Origin: an uncultured bacterium
Lineage (GTDB): Bacteria; Patescibacteriota; Minisyncoccia; Phycocordibacterales; CAIZLB01
Reading direction: 5' to 3'
DNA: 64,000 bases
Assembly (NCBI GenBank): GCA_903936565.1
Contig: CAIZVZ010000001.1
Coordinates: 95,905 to 159,904 of the forward strand
In this document: positions 12,444-35,295 of the stretch, one piece after another
How the letters are laid out: each line of letters starts with the position of its first letter
How positions within the stretch are numbered: the stretch's first letter is position 1
The notes under the pieces: generated by a model
Databases searched by the model: none
The model's input: only the letters and a program-made list of their open reading frames with translations
Told to the model about the DNA's origin: nothing
Made by a program: the position numbers and the translations under genes

Positions 12444-13227
12444 ATCTTAGTGAATTCATATTAATAGGACTTTTAAAGCGCAGCTGGGAATAGGCTTCTC
12501 CTTCACCAGACTCAACAACCTCAACCGCACCCAACAAAATTGTCTCTGCTGAAGGCCACACGACCGGATCGCCAACTTTAACTTTTATATTTTTAGGCAA
12601 TTTAATATAAAAGTTTCCAGCACCCTGTCCTTCTGCCACCACTGGATTCAATGCATCTTTAACTCTTGATTTTACCGTACTTGTTCCTACACCAGAATCA
12701 TCTTTGACTCCCTCAATCGGAGAATTAATTAGAGCGTCAATTTTTTGTCCTGCAGAAGAAAATAATGTAACGGTTGAAGTGTGGCCTGAGACGGAAGAAA
12801 TCATACCTATTGCATATACGCTATCAGAAAACACCATATCCCCTTCCAGGATATCTTGATCAGATCCTATATCGATCACAAGTGAGTCAAACGGGGTTCT
12901 TGGGGGTCGCTCTATTACTCCTGCCAAAATCATATTAGAGTCCTCTGGTGTCTTACCAAGCAAAGACCTGAGATATTCATTTTCAGTTTGAAGAGATTTA
13001 ACCAAAGCCTGCTCTGCCAAATTTCTTGGAATAAACCTTGGTTCATTTGAACCATTTACCACATATGCTCTCACATTTTGAACTACACTGATTAAAGACT
13101 TGCTGGCAAATACATATAGCAAGACACAAATGATAAACAAAACTAACAGTCCAATAAATTGTACTTTACTGAAAGATTTTTTTGAGTTTGAATTGTATTT
13201 ATTTCCTTGTAGGTAGCTCATCTTCAT
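12418..13227 (-). CDS. mreC: Rod shape-determining protein MreC
   Basis: 269 aa with a TM helix, a coiled coil (LQTENEYLRSLL) and a beta-rich C-terminal domain. It follows mreB. Confidence 0.75.
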   Translation of the reverse strand: MKMSYLQGNKYNSNSKKSFSKVQFIGLLVLFIICVLLYVFASKSLISVVQNVRAYVVNGSNEPRFIPRNLAEQALVKSLQTENEYLRSLLGKTPEDSNMILAGVIERPPRTPFDSLVIDIGSDQDILEGDMVFSDSVYAIGMISSVSGHTSTVTLFSSAGQKIDALINSPIEGVKDDSGVGTSTVKSRVKDALNPVVAEGQGAGNFYIKLPKNIKVKVGDPVVWPSAETILLGAVEVVESGEGEAYSQLRFKSPINMNSLRYVQVKKVL

Positions 13228-14263
13228 TTTGAATTAGCATTTCCTCAAACACATCCATATCCTCTAATATTATACCAGCACCACGGGCAACTGCGGTAAG
13301 CGGATCATCAGCAACATGAACGGGAATACCAACATACTTTGACAAGACTTCTGGAAGACCTCTGATGAGCGCCCCACCTCCAGCTAGATGAATTCCATTT
13401 CTCATAACATCTGCAAGTATTTCAGGTGGAGTGGTTTCAAGAACCTCTTTAACTGATTCCAAGAAGGTGTCCATGGACGCACCAATTGCTTCTCTGATAT
13501 CGGAATCAGTTACAATCACCTCTCTTGGAAGGCCTGTAACAAGATCTCTTCCTCTTATTGCAGCTTCAAGTGCCGGCTTATGCTCTATCACAGTAGCGAT
13601 GGCAATCTTCAAATCCTCTGCTGTCTTCTCTCCAATCAGAATTTTAAATTCATTTCTGATATAAGACATTATATCACTATTTAATTTATCACCTGCAACT
13701 TTTAGATTTTTTGCACGAACAATTCCACCTAATGAAATCACAGCGATATCCGTAGTACCTCCTCCGATGTCCACAATCATACTACCTGTTGCTTCTCTAA
13801 CTGGTAGCCTTATGCCAATTGCAGCTGCCATCGGCTCTTCAATGATATGAACTTCTCTTGCACCTGCATTTCTTGCAGCATCGCGAACAGCACGACGCTC
13901 CACGTTTGTAACTCCATAAGGAACTCCGACAACAACCTTTGGACCAAGCATTTTTTTAGATAACTCTTCTGCCTTTTTAATTAGATATGAAAGCATTTCT
14001 TCTGTTACTTCAAAATCCGAAATAACTCCATCAACAATTGGTCGAACTGCAACAATGTGACCTGGAGTTCTTCCAAGCATTGCCTTCGCTTGCGCACCAA
14101 CAGCAACTACTCTTCCTGTTTTTTGATTTACCGCAACAACAGACGGCTCGTTAATTATAACCCCCCTTCCAGAAACATAGACAAGAGTATTAGCTGTACC
14201 AAGATCGATACCGATCTCGTTTGAAGTCATCTTTAGAAATTTGTCTTTGATATTTTTGAACAT
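13199..14263 (-). CDS. mreB: Rod shape-determining protein MreB (actin homologue), copy 1
   Basis: It has the phosphate-1 motif IGIDLGTANTLVY and the motifs DIGGGTTD and GIHLAGGGA. It sits at the head of mreBCD-mrdA. Confidence 0.9.
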   Translation of the reverse strand: MFKNIKDKFLKMTSNEIGIDLGTANTLVYVSGRGVIINEPSVVAVNQKTGRVVAVGAQAKAMLGRTPGHIVAVRPIVDGVISDFEVTEEMLSYLIKKAEELSKKMLGPKVVVGVPYGVTNVERRAVRDAARNAGAREVHIIEEPMAAAIGIRLPVREATGSMIVDIGGGTTDIAVISLGGIVRAKNLKVAGDKLNSDIMSYIRNEFKILIGEKTAEDLKIAIATVIEHKPALEAAIRGRDLVTGLPREVIVTDSDIREAIGASMDTFLESVKEVLETTPPEILADVMRNGIHLAGGGALIRGLPEVLSKYVGIPVHVADDPLTAVARGAGIILEDMDVFEEMLIQNEDELPTRK

Positions 14264-29147: not shown

Positions 29148-30179
29148 TTACCTCTTCGCAATTATACTCTTCTTGTAAGTATTCAAGTGCTCAAGTGCAA
29201 TTCCTGTTCCCTTTGCAACACAGTATAGAGGATCATCTGCAAGCTTCGCCTTAACTCCTGTTCTTCTATAAACAAGCTCTGGCAAATTACGCAATTGTGA
29301 GGATCCTCCTGTCATTATAATTCCGTTATCAATAATGTCAGATGCAAGCTCTGGTGGCGTCTCTTGCAAAACATCCTTAATTGCTTTAATCATCTCACGT
29401 AATTCTTTTGCAACAGCTTTCACAACTTCATTTGTTTTAATCTCAACTGAACGAGGAAGACCTGTTAGAAAATCACGTCCCTTGATTGTCATAGAAAGTT
29501 CATCATCCATTGTTACAGCAGATCCAACATTTATCTTCATCTCCTCCGCTGTCTTATCACCAATCGCAAGGTTATAAGTTTTCTTGATGTAATCCGCAAT
29601 CGCTTGATCAATTCTATTTCCCGCACACTTTACAGAGTTACAAGTTACAATTCCTCCCAAGGAAATAACAGCTACGTCAGTTGTTCCTCCACCAATATCA
29701 ACAATCATGTGACCATTCGGCTCTTGAATAGAAATTCCTGCACCAATTGCTGCAAGAATCGGCTCCTTCACGACATAGGCGTTTTTTGCTCCAGCTTTGA
29801 TTGCAGCTTCAACCACAGCACGGCGCTCTGTGGAGGTAACACCAGCGGGGACAGAGACCATCACATCAGGCTTCCAAATATTCCATCGTCCCAAGGCCTT
29901 ATTGATAAAATATCGAAGCATCGCCTCGGTCACTCTATAATCAGCAATAACGCCATCACGCATTGGTCTATATGCGATAATATTATCAGGCGTCTTTCCA
30001 ATCATGTCTTTTGCGTCAATTCCAACGGCCAATATTTGATTATCCTGCTCAGAAACAGCAACAACGGAAGGCTCGTTCAGTACAATTCCACGCCCAGGAA
30101 GAAAAACCAAGGTATTAGAAGTTCCAAGGTCAATCCCGAGCTTTTTAGAAAATAATGCCATGGCTATATAATAAGGCAC
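29148..30179 (-). CDS. mreB: MreB-like actin homologue, copy 2
   Basis: It has LGIDLGTSNTLVF, DIGGGTTD and GIIMTGGSS motifs. It is about 40-45% identical by eye to copy 1 at 13199-14263. Confidence 0.85.
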   Translation of the reverse strand: MPYYIAMALFSKKLGIDLGTSNTLVFLPGRGIVLNEPSVVAVSEQDNQILAVGIDAKDMIGKTPDNIIAYRPMRDGVIADYRVTEAMLRYFINKALGRWNIWKPDVMVSVPAGVTSTERRAVVEAAIKAGAKNAYVVKEPILAAIGAGISIQEPNGHMIVDIGGGTTDVAVISLGGIVTCNSVKCAGNRIDQAIADYIKKTYNLAIGDKTAEEMKINVGSAVTMDDELSMTIKGRDFLTGLPRSVEIKTNEVVKAVAKELREMIKAIKDVLQETPPELASDIIDNGIIMTGGSSQLRNLPELVYRRTGVKAKLADDPLYCVAKGTGIALEHLNTYKKSIIAKR

Positions 30180-30230
30180 GTTGTCCTTTTTTACAACTTG
30201 ACGAATGGTTTGATTGACATCGACGTGTCT

Positions 30231-30350
30231 TGGCCGAAATCAGCTGATTTCAGCACGTTTTTCACGTCTAATAAACTATGGCCAAAATCTGCTAATTTTG
30301 GCACAATTTTTACGCCTAAAAATCTGTCGAAATCTGGTGATTTCGACACG
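30231..30350. promoter_or_regulatory. Three tandem repeats with a period of about 46 bp, each with a palindromic core (GAAATCAGCTGATTTC, CAAAATCTGCTAATTTTG, CGAAATCTGGTGATTTCG), in the divergent mreB2/priA intergenic region; a candidate operator array
   Basis: Repeats and palindromes read directly. The repeat is also visible as a periodic peptide in the six-frame track. Confidence 0.5.
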
Positions 30351-30352
30351 AT

Positions 30353-32452
30353 TTGCACGCTTGCAAATCGCCTATTGAAAAAAACCCAATTTTCTGCGAT
30401 GATTTAGGTGTGTATATTCTAACCGTTCACCCAATTCAGAGATCTAGTTTCAAAGAAACCCTAACCTATTGGGCTCCTCATAATTTCTCGGCTGGTTCAA
30501 TAATCTACGTTCCATTTAGAAATAAAAATATATTAGCGCTTGTTGAAAGTTGCATGAATGCAACGGAATCAAAAGCCGATATAAAAAATGCAGATTTCAT
30601 AGCAAGAAAAATCGAATCAAAAAAAACAATCACTGCTGTCTCCCCTTCTCTTATCAAAGCATGCCAAGCTGTTTCAAAAGAATTTGCATATCCGATTGGT
30701 TCGATCATAAAGACTATTATTCCAGAATGTGCATTAACTTATGCTGAGGAGGCTATTAGCAAAAAAACAAAAAGCTCTGTTGAAAAGGAATCTGAAACAA
30801 AGAATACTACCAAAGACAATGAGAGCGACGGAGGCACTAGTTCTAGTATAAGAATCGGAGGAATAGCTATGGATGAGGATGACGACGACGGCTTCACTGG
30901 ACAGCCATCTTCTCGCGACATCTTCGTCTTTCAAACAAACACAACCGACAGATACGGTACATACAAAAGTATCATTCGCGAAGAATTCGCAAAGAGAAAA
31001 TCCGTCATCATTATCGCCCCAACAGTAAATTCAGCGGAAGAAATTTACGAGGAACTTTCTCGTGGAATCAGTGACTACGCTTACCTACTTCACGGCGGGA
31101 TAAATAAAAAGAAGCAAGTAGAGATTTGGGGAAAGGCACTAAACGAACCACACACTATCGCCCTAATCACAACACCATCTTTTGTTGGTCTTCCAAGAGA
31201 AGATATTGCAACGATTGTTGTTGAGAGAGAATCATCAAGAAGCTACATCACAATGTTTAAGCCACTTTTTGACTATAGATACCTATTCCAAAAGTGGTCA
31301 AAAGAATTGAAAGCTCGCCTAATTTATGGGGACATACTTTTGCGAGTAGAAACCTTATACAGAAGAGAGCGAGGAGAAGTCTTTGATTTCTTCCCCATTT
31401 CAATGCGAATAGAAAAGCGTCCCAACACCATTGTCGTAGACATGTCCGAGCCAATTCGAAAAGAAAAGGCGAAGAAGGAAAAAGATAAAATACATTCAAA
31501 GAATAACTTAATTTATTCTGAAGAATTAGAATCTCAAGTTGAATACGCCGGCAAGAAAAAAGAAAAAATCATAATCTTTACCGCACGTCGAGGGCTTGCT
31601 CCGCAAACTGTTTGTGGAGATTGTGGAACAACAGTTACCTGCTCCGTTTGTGAGGCGCCCGTTGTTTTGCATAATTCAAAAGTGGAAAGCAAAAGATACT
31701 TCCTGTGTCATCATTGTGGACGAGAGAGAACTGCACTTGAAGGTTGTAAAAATTGCACAAGCTGGAAATTAATAACTCTCGGCATCGGATCTGACACAAT
31801 ATATGAAGAAACAAAAAAACGTTTTCCCAACAGACCAATCTATAGACTAGACCGAGATACAGCAAGCACAGATAAGCAAGCAAGAGATATCGCCAAAAAA
31901 TTCCACGAGAGTTCTGATGGAATTTTAGTCGGAACAGAATTTTCTTTAAATTATTTAAAGCCTATAAAGCATGTGGCCATCGCATCGATGGATAGTCTAT
32001 TCTCTCTCCCCGACTTCCGAATCAATGAAAGAATTTGCCACATACTTCTTCAAGCCCAAACTCTGGCGGAAGAATATTTATTAATTCAATCAAGAAACGC
32101 CACTCACCCGCTTTTGGGATATATTCAAAGTGGAAATTTGAACGATTTCTACAAGTCAGAAATTGCAGACAGAAAGGCTCTCTCCTACCCACCATTTGCA
32201 ACTTTCATTAAAATCACAATCGAAGCCGATAAAGGAACCGCAGCGAAGGAGATGGGTAAGCTACAAGTATGGCTTGAGAAGTGGAATCCGGTAATCTTCC
32301 CCGCCTTTATTCCTTCAGTAGGAGGCCGCTCCATTTTACATATGTTAATTTCAATGTCGCCAAAGCTCTGGCCTGACGAGGAATTACGAGATATTTTAAC
32401 GAACCTTCCTCCTGAATTTACGGTTAGTGTACATCCGGAGAGTTTGTTATAA
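30353..32452 (+). CDS. priA: Primosomal protein N' (PriA) homologue with degenerate Walker A and Walker B motifs
   Basis: It has an N-terminal 3'-DNA-binding-like region and the PriA Cys4/Cys4 zinc region (CGDCG..CSVCEAP...CHHCG..CKNC). In the helicase core, QTNTTDRYGTYKS replaces GxGKT and VVERESS replaces DExH. A low-complexity acidic insertion is present. The true start may lie downstream of 30353. Confidence 0.75.
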   Translation: MHACKSPIEKNPIFCDDLGVYILTVHPIQRSSFKETLTYWAPHNFSAGSIIYVPFRNKNILALVESCMNATESKADIKNADFIARKIESKKTITAVSPSLIKACQAVSKEFAYPIGSIIKTIIPECALTYAEEAISKKTKSSVEKESETKNTTKDNESDGGTSSSIRIGGIAMDEDDDDGFTGQPSSRDIFVFQTNTTDRYGTYKSIIREEFAKRKSVIIIAPTVNSAEEIYEELSRGISDYAYLLHGGINKKKQVEIWGKALNEPHTIALITTPSFVGLPREDIATIVVERESSRSYITMFKPLFDYRYLFQKWSKELKARLIYGDILLRVETLYRRERGEVFDFFPISMRIEKRPNTIVVDMSEPIRKEKAKKEKDKIHSKNNLIYSEELESQVEYAGKKKEKIIIFTARRGLAPQTVCGDCGTTVTCSVCEAPVVLHNSKVESKRYFLCHHCGRERTALEGCKNCTSWKLITLGIGSDTIYEETKKRFPNRPIYRLDRDTASTDKQARDIAKKFHESSDGILVGTEFSLNYLKPIKHVAIASMDSLFSLPDFRINERICHILLQAQTLAEEYLLIQSRNATHPLLGYIQSGNLNDFYKSEIADRKALSYPPFATFIKITIEADKGTAAKEMGKLQVWLEKWNPVIFPAFIPSVGGRSILHMLISMSPKLWPDEELRDILTNLPPEFTVSVHPESLL

Positions 32453-32490: not shown

Positions 32491-33624
32491 ATGAGCAGAA
32501 ATTTAAAAATAGCTATAGGTGCAATTATTATAATAGCTTTGATAATCATAATATCCACCAATCAAAAACCAAAAGTTACAGGGCCAATTTTAGTTGGAGT
32601 CATAGCCCCGATGTCTGGTCCTGGCGCTTCACTTGGTGAATTCGCAAAAAATACTGTCGATATGACAGTTGAAAAGATCAATAAAGAAGGTGGTGTTAAT
32701 GGACAACCAATACAATTAGTTTATGAGGATGACCAATGTGATCCTGCAAAATCAGTTAGTGCAATGCAAAAACTTATAAACGTAGATCGGGTAAAAATTG
32801 TACTCGAAACAACATGTAGCAGTGGAGTAATTTCGTCAGTTCCGATTGCTACACAAAATGGTGTTTTTGTCTTTTCGTCTTTTGCTACAAGTGGTAATTT
32901 GAAAAATGTAAGCCCACTATTCGCAAGAACAATTCCAAGTGAAGTTGGGTTAAGTGAAGCTCTTGCTAATTACACTATTTCAAAAGGTTGGAAGAATATT
33001 GCAATAATTCAGGAAAGCTCAGAATACTCAGAAGCCATGTCCTTGATATTCGAGTCCATTCTAGCAAAAAATAACGTTCAAATCACAAAAGAAAAATTCG
33101 ATACCAAAAGCACAGACCTTCGAACTCCCTTAACAAAACTAAAAGCAACAAACCCTGATGCTATATTTTTAATACCAGCAACACCTGCAGCAGGAGAGAT
33201 TATATTAAGTAATCTAAGAGCGATGAATTGGAAGGTCCAAATGATTGGTAATCCGCTATTCACAGTTGGCACAGAAGTGTTCGCAAAAAACAAAGATCTT
33301 CTTGAGGGCGTTGTTATCGCTGAGCAAAAGGCAGGACCAGATACACCAGAATATCTTGCATTTAAAAATGAGTACAAGACTAAGTTCGGTAAATCATTTC
33401 CATATGAATCATATGCTCAAGCCACAAGAGATATGCTTTACATCTTAAAAGACGGACTTAAGAAGTATGGAAATGACCCACAAAAGATTTCGGCATGGGT
33501 TCGAACAACAAAGGATTATCCAGGTTTCTCTGGATCCCTAACAATTGGCTCGGACGGAGACAGGGAGGGTGGACATGTTATAAAGATAGTTAAGGATGGC
33601 AAGGCAGAGATTCAGAATAATTAA
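32491..33624 (+). CDS. ABC-transporter substrate-binding protein, LivK-like type-I periplasmic binding fold (signal-anchored), SBP-1
   Basis: 377 aa. An N-terminal TM helix is followed by ILVGVIAPMSGPGASLGE ... GGVNGQPIQLVYEDDQCDPAK ... VDRVKIVLE, which matches the Leu/Ile/Val-binding protein family. Confidence 0.8.
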   Translation: MSRNLKIAIGAIIIIALIIIISTNQKPKVTGPILVGVIAPMSGPGASLGEFAKNTVDMTVEKINKEGGVNGQPIQLVYEDDQCDPAKSVSAMQKLINVDRVKIVLETTCSSGVISSVPIATQNGVFVFSSFATSGNLKNVSPLFARTIPSEVGLSEALANYTISKGWKNIAIIQESSEYSEAMSLIFESILAKNNVQITKEKFDTKSTDLRTPLTKLKATNPDAIFLIPATPAAGEIILSNLRAMNWKVQMIGNPLFTVGTEVFAKNKDLLEGVVIAEQKAGPDTPEYLAFKNEYKTKFGKSFPYESYAQATRDMLYILKDGLKKYGNDPQKISAWVRTTKDYPGFSGSLTIGSDGDREGGHVIKIVKDGKAEIQNN

Positions 33625-33734: not shown

Positions 33735-34337
33735 ATGCAAAAGTTTACCCACTTTAAGCCTGAAAATAAGATTGTAACAGAGGATCATCCGGCACTCCGA
33801 ATGGCCTCAATTGAAATTCCTAAAGATGAAATCAAGGGTGAATATGTTCAAAACTTGATTTCTCATATGAGTAAAATGCTAGCACAACAGATTGATGGAG
33901 TTGGTCTGGCGGCACCTCAGGTGGGTGTTCCCCTTCAACTCTTCATGGTATCAGGAAAAGTATTTTTGAATGACGATGACCGAGATGCACTGATGGAAGC
34001 CGAGAAAAATAAGAAGAAGCACAAAATAATTATTCCCCCGGATCTAGTCTGTATTAATCCACAAATAATAAAAACCTCAAAAGATAAAAAATGGATGAAC
34101 GGCGAAGGATGTCTATCGGTTCGGTGGTTCTATGGAAAAGTGCAACGTTCACTTAGAGTTACAATAAAAGCATTAGATAGAGAAGGAAATTCTTTCACAC
34201 GTGGAGCAAGCGGATTACTTTCTCACATCTTCCAACATGAAGTAGACCACCTAAATGGAATTCTTTTTATCGATAAAGCAAAAGACGTCAGAGAATATGA
34301 GCCCGAGGAAGTCTTTAGCCAAGAGGACGAAAAATAA
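33735..34337 (+). CDS. def: Peptide deformylase
   Basis: It has the motifs GVGLAAPQVG, EGCLS and HEVDHLNG. Confidence 0.85.
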   Translation: MQKFTHFKPENKIVTEDHPALRMASIEIPKDEIKGEYVQNLISHMSKMLAQQIDGVGLAAPQVGVPLQLFMVSGKVFLNDDDRDALMEAEKNKKKHKIIIPPDLVCINPQIIKTSKDKKWMNGEGCLSVRWFYGKVQRSLRVTIKALDREGNSFTRGASGLLSHIFQHEVDHLNGILFIDKAKDVREYEPEEVFSQEDEK

Positions 34338-34356: not shown

Positions 34357-35295
34357 ATGACAAACCAAGAACAAAAACCATCACACTATCCATTATATTT
34401 TTTCGGATCATCCCTGATGTCAGTTAAGGTATTGAACGCGCTTCGTAATTACGGAATCACACCTAACGTAATAATTACCGTTCCAGATAAACCACAAGGA
34501 AGAAAATTAGAATTAACTCCAAACCCAACAAAAATTTGGGCGCAAGATCATCATATCCCCTGTCTTGAATTTGCAAAGTTGAACGATGATGCATATCAGG
34601 AAATTAAAACACAGTCAAAAGAGCAACCAAAGATTTTTATCGTTGCCTCTTACGGAAAAATAATTCCTGAAAGATTCCTAGAAATCCCAGAGTTTGGAGC
34701 ACTAAATATTCACCCTTCCAAACTTCCAGAACTGCGCGGTGCTGCCCCACTTCAATTCACAATACTTAATGATCAAAACAAAACTGCAGTTACAATTATT
34801 AAAATGGATAAGGATATGGACCACGGACCAATCTTTGCACAGGACAATGTTGATATTGCGGAAATTGCAAAGTGGCCAACAGGATACTCTGAACTAGAAT
34901 TAATTACAGCCAATATCGGGGCCCGTTTAATTGCAGAAAATATTGACGACTATATTGCAGGTGATTTAAAACTTAAGGAGCAAAAGCACGAATCGGCTAC
35001 ATTCACAAAAAAAATCACAAAAGAAGACGGCCTAATTAATCCGTGGCTTTCAAAACCAGAGGAACAAAGAAAGAACATTCTAAAAATCAGAGCTTTTGAG
35101 GAATGGCCTGGAACATACTTCTTTGCTGATAAAATGATTAAGGGAGAAAATAAAAAGATTAGAGTGGTAATAAAGGAGGCGTTTTGGCATGAAAACAATG
35201 AAGCTGGACATCAATTACAAATTACTCGCGTAATTCCCGAAGGGGGAGGTATGATGATGTGGGACTCATTCTTGCAGAGTATTGGGAGGAAATAA
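34357..35295 (+). CDS. fmt: Methionyl-tRNA formyltransferase
   Basis: It has the formyltransferase core (NIHPSKLPELRGAAPLQFTILND) and an Fmt C-terminal domain. It lies directly downstream of def. Confidence 0.85.
   Translation: MTNQEQKPSHYPLYFFGSSLMSVKVLNALRNYGITPNVIITVPDKPQGRKLELTPNPTKIWAQDHHIPCLEFAKLNDDAYQEIKTQSKEQPKIFIVASYGKIIPERFLEIPEFGALNIHPSKLPELRGAAPLQFTILNDQNKTAVTIIKMDKDMDHGPIFAQDNVDIAEIAKWPTGYSELELITANIGARLIAENIDDYIAGDLKLKEQKHESATFTKKITKEDGLINPWLSKPEEQRKNILKIRAFEEWPGTYFFADKMIKGENKKIRVVIKEAFWHENNEAGHQLQITRVIPEGGGMMMWDSFLQSIGRK

Follow-up and report, generated by a model that had tools for sequence, protein, structure and literature searches.

A PriA orthologue of a freshwater Patescibacterium that has probably become a pseudohelicase

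What becomes of the replication-restart factor PriA when its motor is lost? The question is raised by a gene, priA, in a stretch of 64,000 nucleotides from an uncultured bacterium (contig CAIZVZ010000001.1, positions 95,905 to 159,904 of the forward strand; assembly GCA_903936565.1), which we call the window. An original prediction, made from the letters alone, had noted that both ATPase motifs of the encoded protein are degenerate and had reasoned that such a PriA could act only as a loader or scaffold. We find it likely that the priA of this freshwater Patescibacterium, of the Parcubacteria/Paceibacteria type, has turned into a pseudohelicase, which would serve as an ATP-independent fork-recognition scaffold that recruits DnaB. 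Positions below are those of the window, and residues are numbered in a protein of 680 amino acids (the numbers of the original prediction equal these plus 19).

Helicase motifs and identity of the protein

The register of the protein on canonical PriA was determined with phmmer, with MAFFT together with E. coli PriA, and with hhalign, which aligned a profile built from 86 family members with a profile of five canonical PriAs. These gave one and the same register, in which TTDRY lies on GSGKT and ERES on DEEH, and hhalign aligned residues 17-676 to canonical PriA with a probability of 100 and an E value of 4.7e-60. The original prediction had read QTNTTDRY as a degenerate Walker A motif and ERES (within VVERESS) as a degenerate DExH motif, and had conceded that its manual alignment might be off register. 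Both segments are present, all three methods place them on GVTGSGKT and DEEH, respectively, and the manual register proves to be right, which rules out that objection. A canonical panel of seven PriAs from Pseudomonadota, Bacillota, Cyanobacteriota, and Bacteroidota, drawn from a tblastn search of PLSDB with E. coli PriA, has G[VI]T[GS]SGKT and DEEH throughout. A pattern search found no intact Walker A or DExH motif elsewhere in the protein, and neither GxxxxGK[ST] nor DExH at the site itself in the query or in 264 relatives. The sole GK[ST] tripeptides are located in the C-terminal domain (CTD) or, in homologue P0187 only, in the helix after the P-loop.

In superfamily 2 (SF2) helicases, motifs Q, I, II, and VI handle the nucleoside triphosphate (NTP), and motifs Ia, Ib, IV, and V bind nucleic acid. 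As judged from the sequence, every motif for ATP binding and hydrolysis (0, I, II, III, and VI) is lost in the present protein. All three P-loop glycines are substituted (by Q, T/D, and D/E), and the column of the Mg-ligand Thr is hydrophobic. The motif 0 (LNxEQ) helix and the winged-helix domain, which correspond to E. coli residues ~110-215, have no counterpart in the alignments.

The elements that handle DNA present a different picture. Residues were counted, here and below, in 258 full-length relatives and separately in 80 GTDB species representatives. Motifs Ia, IV, and V are retained (Table 1), and the Thr of motif Ib is kept in 256 of the 258 homologues. In the pocket for the 3' end, the equivalent of Y18 is Tyr and that of K61 is Lys or Arg, each in 255/258 homologues. 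All eight cysteine columns of the E. coli cysteine-rich region (CRR) are occupied by Cys in 251-258 of the 258. The aromatic-rich loop is remodelled, with Pro at the equivalent of W333 in 254/258. Because the NTP motifs are lost while Ia, Ib, IV, and V persist, the alignments indicate that the ATP machinery is gone and that the parts for DNA handling and partner docking remain.

The identity of the protein as PriA is supported at the levels of profile, fold, and gene order. The NCBIfam PriA models match it at E values of 5e-65 and 2e-62, and a phmmer search of the PDB matched the Klebsiella pneumoniae and E. coli PriA structures at ~2e-34. The TIGR00595 score of 211.6 bits is under the curated equivalog cutoff (230.35), and the scores of the PRK05580 sub-models are far beneath their cutoffs. 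An AlphaFold2 model computed from 86 homologues is confident across both lobes, with a predicted local distance difference test score (pLDDT) of 86.5 and a predicted template modelling (TM) score of 0.85. When this model was compared with the PDB by Foldseek, the best nine matches were all PriA (E values down to 1.5e-36, TM scores of 0.63-0.76), including the winged-helix-deletion PriA 6dcr. The two-lobe RecA-like SF2 core, the CRR with its eight Cys inserted in lobe 2, and the PriA C-terminal domain are all present. The PriA layout with a Cys-rich zinc region, as originally proposed, is thus borne out by the domain matches, the Foldseek comparison, and the eight Cys columns. A tblastn search with canonical and query PriA found no second PriA-like sequence in the window, and tblastn found none in the flanks (±10 kb) of 80 related loci. 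The gene appears to be the orthologous priA rather than a stray paralogous copy, because its adjacency to def and fmt is also the gene order in Bacillus. The conserved order of the divergent mreB and priA-def-fmt supports the orthology as well.

The place of the winged-helix domain is taken by a linker. The original prediction had pointed out a Ser/Thr/Asp-rich insertion; the stretch is present (KDNESDGG...DEDDDDG, nt 30812-30892), but it is part of this variable linker and not an insertion. Across the family, the linker measures 24-114 amino acids (median 32) and is hypervariable even among relatives at least 85% identical. Some relatives of ~50% identity have highly acidic linkers, with a net charge down to -31. 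In the closest relatives, the last residues of the linker are a series of acidic ones and then an aromatic one (DEDDDDGF, EDEDQGF, DDDDW, and NDW). This ending resembles the C-terminal tail of SSB, a likeness that we regard as only a lead. The acidic low-complexity stretch may be a flexible tether particular to a genus-level lineage.

Conservation of the replaced motifs and possible function

An indexed protein search returned 304 relatives, and we examined the 120 best of them. When 1.84 billion cluster representatives were searched exhaustively with phmmer, 2041 matches were obtained at E<=1e-30, and the best 150 all scored above 390 bits. The column of the Walker lysine, K230 in E. coli, is Arg in 258/258 relatives and in 80/80 species representatives, which confirms that relatives share the degenerate motifs. 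Asp or Glu occupies the G229 column in 245 of the relatives and in all 80 representatives, and the S356 column is Asp in 241 and 80, respectively. In motif II, the E322 column has kept its Glu (251/258 and 80/80), and the E321 column has become Lys or Arg (184/258 and 67/80). These replacements form a signature that is found throughout the clade: Q-x-x-x-x-[DE]-R-hydrophobic, [ED]-[KR]-E-[SN]-S-R-x-Y, and G-D-x-L-L-R. The mean pairwise identity around the replaced motifs I, II, and III is 46-53%, compared with 35-43% in most domains, 52% in the zinc region, and 17% in the linker. Because the substituted positions are near-invariant and more conserved than the protein average, the aligned family indicates that the replacement is fixed and under strong purifying selection, and is not decay.

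The named relatives are all Patescibacteria of the Parcubacteria type (Paceibacterota, Pacebacteria, Taylorbacteria, Minisyncoccia, and "Patescibacteria group"). When one genome per species was scanned with two family-specific peptide patterns, 262 GTDB species were confirmed. As a lower bound, the group spans 150 or more protein clusters (50% identity) and no fewer than 262 GTDB species. The nearest GTDB relative, at 97% identity, comes from a metagenome-assembled genome of a Swedish lake. Many members are annotated as hypothetical proteins only, and the pseudohelicase form explains why annotation pipelines so frequently apply this label. Outside the group, E. coli PriA matched a Candidatus Stammera capleta sequence in PLSDB (CP144833.1, 110572-110970) over 18% of its length (residues 232-364); the priA of this reduced insect-symbiont genome may be eroded or truncated too.

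How could such a protein work? Most likely, the charges of the replacement signature form a network that occupies the site where the nucleotide once sat and holds the two lobes in place. The pattern of new charges suggests, as a speculation, that salt bridges among the acid at G229, the Arg at K230, the base at E321, the Glu at E322, and the acid at S356 replace Mg-ATP. The protein would bind forks that already expose a single-stranded lagging-strand template and, without unwinding, would recruit the replicative helicase DnaB directly or via an adaptor. By analogy, DnaB recruitment without unwinding is plausible because it has been shown for Deinococcus radiodurans PriA and E. coli PriA K230R. 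The E. coli K230R protein (priA300) has no ATPase, helicase, or translocase activity but still allows the primosome to assemble and the PriA-PriB pathway to operate (PMC5778457). Because this single change abolishes the ATPase of E. coli PriA and leaves primosome assembly intact, the inactive loader or scaffold of the original prediction is the best-supported reading, with ATP motifs apparently lost and DNA-binding and zinc parts kept. In recent E. coli structures, the CRR swings round the single-stranded lagging-strand template and exposes partner sites, and, where the lagging arm is duplex, PriA has to unwind it before this movement can occur (PMC13594977, PMC13377028). A motor-less PriA would accordingly act only on gapped forks or lean on another helicase, because a duplex lagging arm needs prior unwinding. 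On this view, replication restart in these tiny-genome bacteria would be confined to forks with an exposed single-stranded template, or would use another helicase.

Several points weigh against the scaffold. The loss of ATPase activity is read from the residues alone, and the Arg and Glu that are invariant at the former catalytic sites could in principle mark a residual, non-canonical interaction with a nucleotide. Conceivably, a second priA of canonical type is encoded elsewhere in the genome, as our search spanned 64 kb. No DnaB, DciA, or SSB partner was identified in the window.

Among the other explanations, the gene may have been repurposed away from restart, as a DnaB-loading/initiation factor or a DNA-structure sensor in loader-poor genomes, and be PriA by ancestry only. 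The Deinococcus PriA with the same loss still binds forks (PMC4504706), and the ancestral priA-def-fmt context is retained here. Moreover, the parts for fork recognition and partner docking (3'-end pocket, CRR, and CTD) are the best conserved. Repurposing would account for the loss of the winged helix and of all motor function, for the TIGR00595 score beneath the equivalog cutoff and the many members called hypothetical, and for the lack of PriB/DnaT-type partners seen in the window, but we consider it unlikely.

The residual nucleotide interaction mentioned above can be extended to a switch, in which the Arg at the Walker Lys position and the Glu of motif II bind a nucleotide in a non-canonical manner and perhaps hydrolyze it slowly. 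Some nucleotide-binding pseudoenzymes keep conserved residues at former catalytic positions, as this protein does with its essentially invariant Arg and Glu. A second, weaker nucleotide site has also been reported for E. coli PriA in a review (PMC5778457). However, a switch is difficult to reconcile with the replacement of all P-loop glycines, the hydrophobic residue in place of the Mg-ligand Thr, the absence of the motif 0 helix, and the deletion of the motif VI loop, and the K230R change alone abolishes the ATPase of E. coli PriA (PMC4504706, PMC5778457). There seems to be little room for a nucleotide switch.

Genomes of Patescibacteria are small and reduced, and one could suppose that under relaxed selection the helicase core is eroding and the motif changes are neutral, as the hypervariability of the linker might suggest. 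However, at least 258 homologues and no fewer than 262 GTDB species have an unbroken open reading frame (ORF), the AlphaFold2 model is confident through both lobes, and the replaced positions are invariant or nearly so, with conservation above the protein average. Decay is effectively refuted by these conservation data and has very little left in its favour. Finally, an alignment artefact that hides intact GxGKT and DExH motifs in another register is ruled out, with a negligible chance of being true, as three alignment methods concur and the pattern search was empty.

If the scaffold reading is taken further, the loss of the motor would be ancient and clade-wide in Parcubacteria/Paceibacteria-type Patescibacteria and independent of that in Deinococcus-Thermus; the charge network would mimic a bound nucleotide and lock the lobes in a fork-binding state; these proteins would be the sole PriAs of their hosts; and the acidic-aromatic linker (DEDDDDGF; DDDDW) would be a regulatory mimic of the SSB tail in a genus-level lineage. 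This combination is tentative and, taken as a whole, rather doubtful. If these are indeed the sole PriAs, a large bacterial radiation restarts replication without any PriA helicase activity.

The locus around priA

The ORF at 30353-32452 (+) gives 699 amino acids if read from TTG. The true start is probably the GTG at 30410, which yields the protein of 680 amino acids, because the database protein P0001 is the same 680-residue product (100% identity), because the letters directly 5' of the GTG (...TTTTCTGCGATGATTTAGGTGTGTAT) are kept in close relatives, and because bases 30353-30409 sit within a non-coding repeat and a promoter-like site. The latter, TTGAAA-17-(TG)GATGAT at 30375-30403, is conserved, and its 3' end lies 7 nt ahead of the GTG. 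No clear Shine-Dalgarno sequence is found at the usual distance from the priA start. The position of the promoter-like site, which stops 7 nt before the GTG, suggests that the priA mRNA is leaderless or has a very short leader.

Three direct repeats are located between the divergent genes mreB and priA. Their palindromes are GAAATCAGCTGATTTC, AAAATCTGCTAATTTT, and GAAATCTGGTGATTTC, each followed by GCACxxTTTTxACG, and relatives at least 88% identical have 1-4 copies at the same site. The repeats give rise to a spurious ORF of 69 amino acids at 30198-30407. Because the palindrome shows no enrichment in the window beyond the mreB/priA intergenic region, it was rejected as a window-wide operator (for example, for TrmB-like regulators). 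At this site, the repeats may serve as operators, or they may belong to a small mobile repeat.

The neighbouring genes and their occurrence in related loci are listed in Table 1. Two replication genes, the delta'-like gene and priA, thus flank mreB in this clade. A second full-length mreB paralogue is present at 13199-14263 (-), and both mreBs match Pfam MreB_Mbl at ~1e-135; the window also carries mreC, two PBP2-type transpeptidases, mraW, and a Mur ligase. Approximately 10 paralogous genes for LivJ-type solute-binding proteins (Pfam Peripla_BP_6, ~355-386 amino acids) are found at 38849-63734 and 32491-33624, an expansion that is striking for a small-genome bacterium. Most are paired divergently with a TrmB-type helix-turn-helix protein of ~258-283 amino acids and one with a KilA-N protein, and the array also has a liv-type permease and an ABC ATPase. 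One LivJ-type copy sits between priA and def, a position that is empty in the 80 related loci.

At ~30000, where mreB and priA diverge, the AT skew shifts from approximately -0.02 to +0.15 and the GC skew from -0.26 to ~0, coinciding with a change from mostly minus-strand to plus-strand genes. The cumulative GC skew has no minimum at this divergence, and the shift therefore probably reflects the coding strand rather than an origin.

Table 1. Positions of priA, its domains and motifs, and the neighbouring features in the window
Feature	Positions	Strand	Evidence and remarks
priA orthologue, putative pseudohelicase form	30410..32452	+	680 aa + stop; P0001 identity; TIGR00595 211.6 bits; top Foldseek matches PriA
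5' extension of longest ORF, probably untranslated	30353..30409	+	Overlaps repeat copy 3 (from 30330) and promoter-like site; gene callers begin at 30410
3'-DNA-binding domain (residues 1-105)	30410..30724	+	Pfam PF17764, 27.7 bits vs cutoff 22.7
Linker in place of winged-helix domain (residues 106-170)	30725..30919	+	E. coli ~110-215 unmatched
Disordered acidic Ser/Thr/Asp-rich stretch (residues 133-167)	30806..30910	+	AlphaFold2 pLDDT <50
Motif I / Walker A equivalent, QTNTTDRY (Q175-Y182)	30932..30955	+	Aligned to E. coli G224-T231 (GVTGSGKT)
Motif Ia equivalent, APTV, retained	31016..31027	+	P204 invariant, T205 >=90% conserved
Motif II / DExH equivalent, ERES (E272-S275)	31223..31234	+	E. 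coli D320-E-E-H323; D320->E/D, E321->K/R, E322 kept, H323->S/N
Motif III equivalent, GDIL	31328..31339	+	Canonical GSAT; SAT->DIL; S356 column Asp
Motif IV, ARRG, retained	31583..31594	+	R393 and G395 invariant in alignment A1
Cysteine-rich region, eight Cys, two predicted zinc sites	31607..31765	+	Most conserved domain, 52% pairwise identity
Motif V, VGTE, retained	31928..31939	+	G508 and T509 conserved
Motif VI position	32045..32074	+	QxxGRAGR arginine-finger loop deleted; 5-residue gap; no Arg pair
PriA C-terminal domain	32105..32449	+	hhalign reaches C-terminus of canonical PriA; AlphaFold2 pLDDT ~90
DNA polymerase III delta'-like (holB-like), 246 aa	27279-28019	-	Pfam DNA_pol3_delta2; adjoins mreB, upstream of priA, in 53/80 related loci
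mreB	29148..30179	-	Pfam MreB_Mbl, E 6.7e-136; upstream of priA in 67/80 related loci
Three direct repeats, 45-48 nt spacing, each with palindrome	30237..30369 (or 30233-30369)	.	mreB/priA divergent promoter region
def	33735-34337	+	Pfam Pep_deformylase; directly downstream of priA in 61/80 related loci
fmt	34357-35295	+	Pfam Formyl_trans_N; directly downstream of priA in 60/80 related loci

Comparison with known PriA proteins

Canonical PriA (E. coli and K. pneumoniae; PDB 4nl4, 6dgd, and 8fak) has in common with this protein the 3'-DNA-binding domain, the RecA-like lobes, the CRR with eight Cys, the CTD, and motifs Ia, Ib, IV, and V, with Foldseek TM scores of 0.67-0.76. In contrast to canonical PriA, the present protein has no winged helix and no recognizable ATP motifs, its aromatic-rich loop is remodelled, and its score lies below the TIGR00595 cutoff. 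Two laboratory variants mimic single features of it. The ATPase-dead but primosome-competent priA300 (K230R) protein of E. coli reproduces the Lys-to-Arg change (PMC5778457), and the winged-helix-deletion PriA 6dcr is among the best structural matches (TM scores of 0.70/0.74). Whereas these are single engineered changes, those in the natural protein occur together, are extensive, and have become fixed in evolution.

The natural counterpart is found in Deinococcus-Thermus. PriA of D. radiodurans appears to be much larger, at ~900 amino acids. The high extinction coefficient reported for it (PMC4504706) fits the larger size. This protein matches helicase motifs I and II poorly, its Walker A Lys is replaced by Arg, and it has no ATPase or helicase activity, but it binds single-stranded DNA, forks (normally), and DnaB directly (PMC4504706; Lopper, Boone & Morrow 2015). 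A review of 2017 named Deinococcus as the sole exception to the conserved helicase activity of PriA (PMC5778457). A tblastn search of PLSDB with E. coli PriA gave no Deinococcus or Thermus PriA replicon among the matches listed. A published cloning primer for D. radiodurans priA had five exact matches in metagenome contigs, all in one unrelated ORF of 38 codons, and was set aside.

The original prediction had called an ATPase-inactive PriA an unusual state for a restart factor. Unusual it is, but the Deinococcus-Thermus pseudohelicase, with the same Lys-to-Arg change, provides a precedent (PMC4504706). A PriA pseudohelicase is therefore known from that group, whereas its occurrence in Patescibacteria, the Candidate Phyla Radiation (CPR), or Parcubacteria was not found described in full-text literature searches. 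The present proteins would constitute a second group in which PriA has no motor, and a far larger one. Both forms are PriA orthologues with Arg for the Walker Lys and degenerate motifs I and II, and neither has an evident PriB or DnaT, which in the present case refers to the 64 kb examined. Because the dead motifs appear to be under strong purifying selection in this group, it offers a natural experiment on the purpose of PriA helicase activity, given that E. coli tolerates K230R. Compared with the Deinococcus form as described in the literature, the present one belongs to a different phylum, has also lost motifs 0, III, and VI and the winged helix, and carries replacements that are a clade-wide conserved signature. 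With these wider motif losses, the missing winged helix, and the conserved replacement signature, the Patescibacteria form may be a separate variant of the PriA pseudohelicase.

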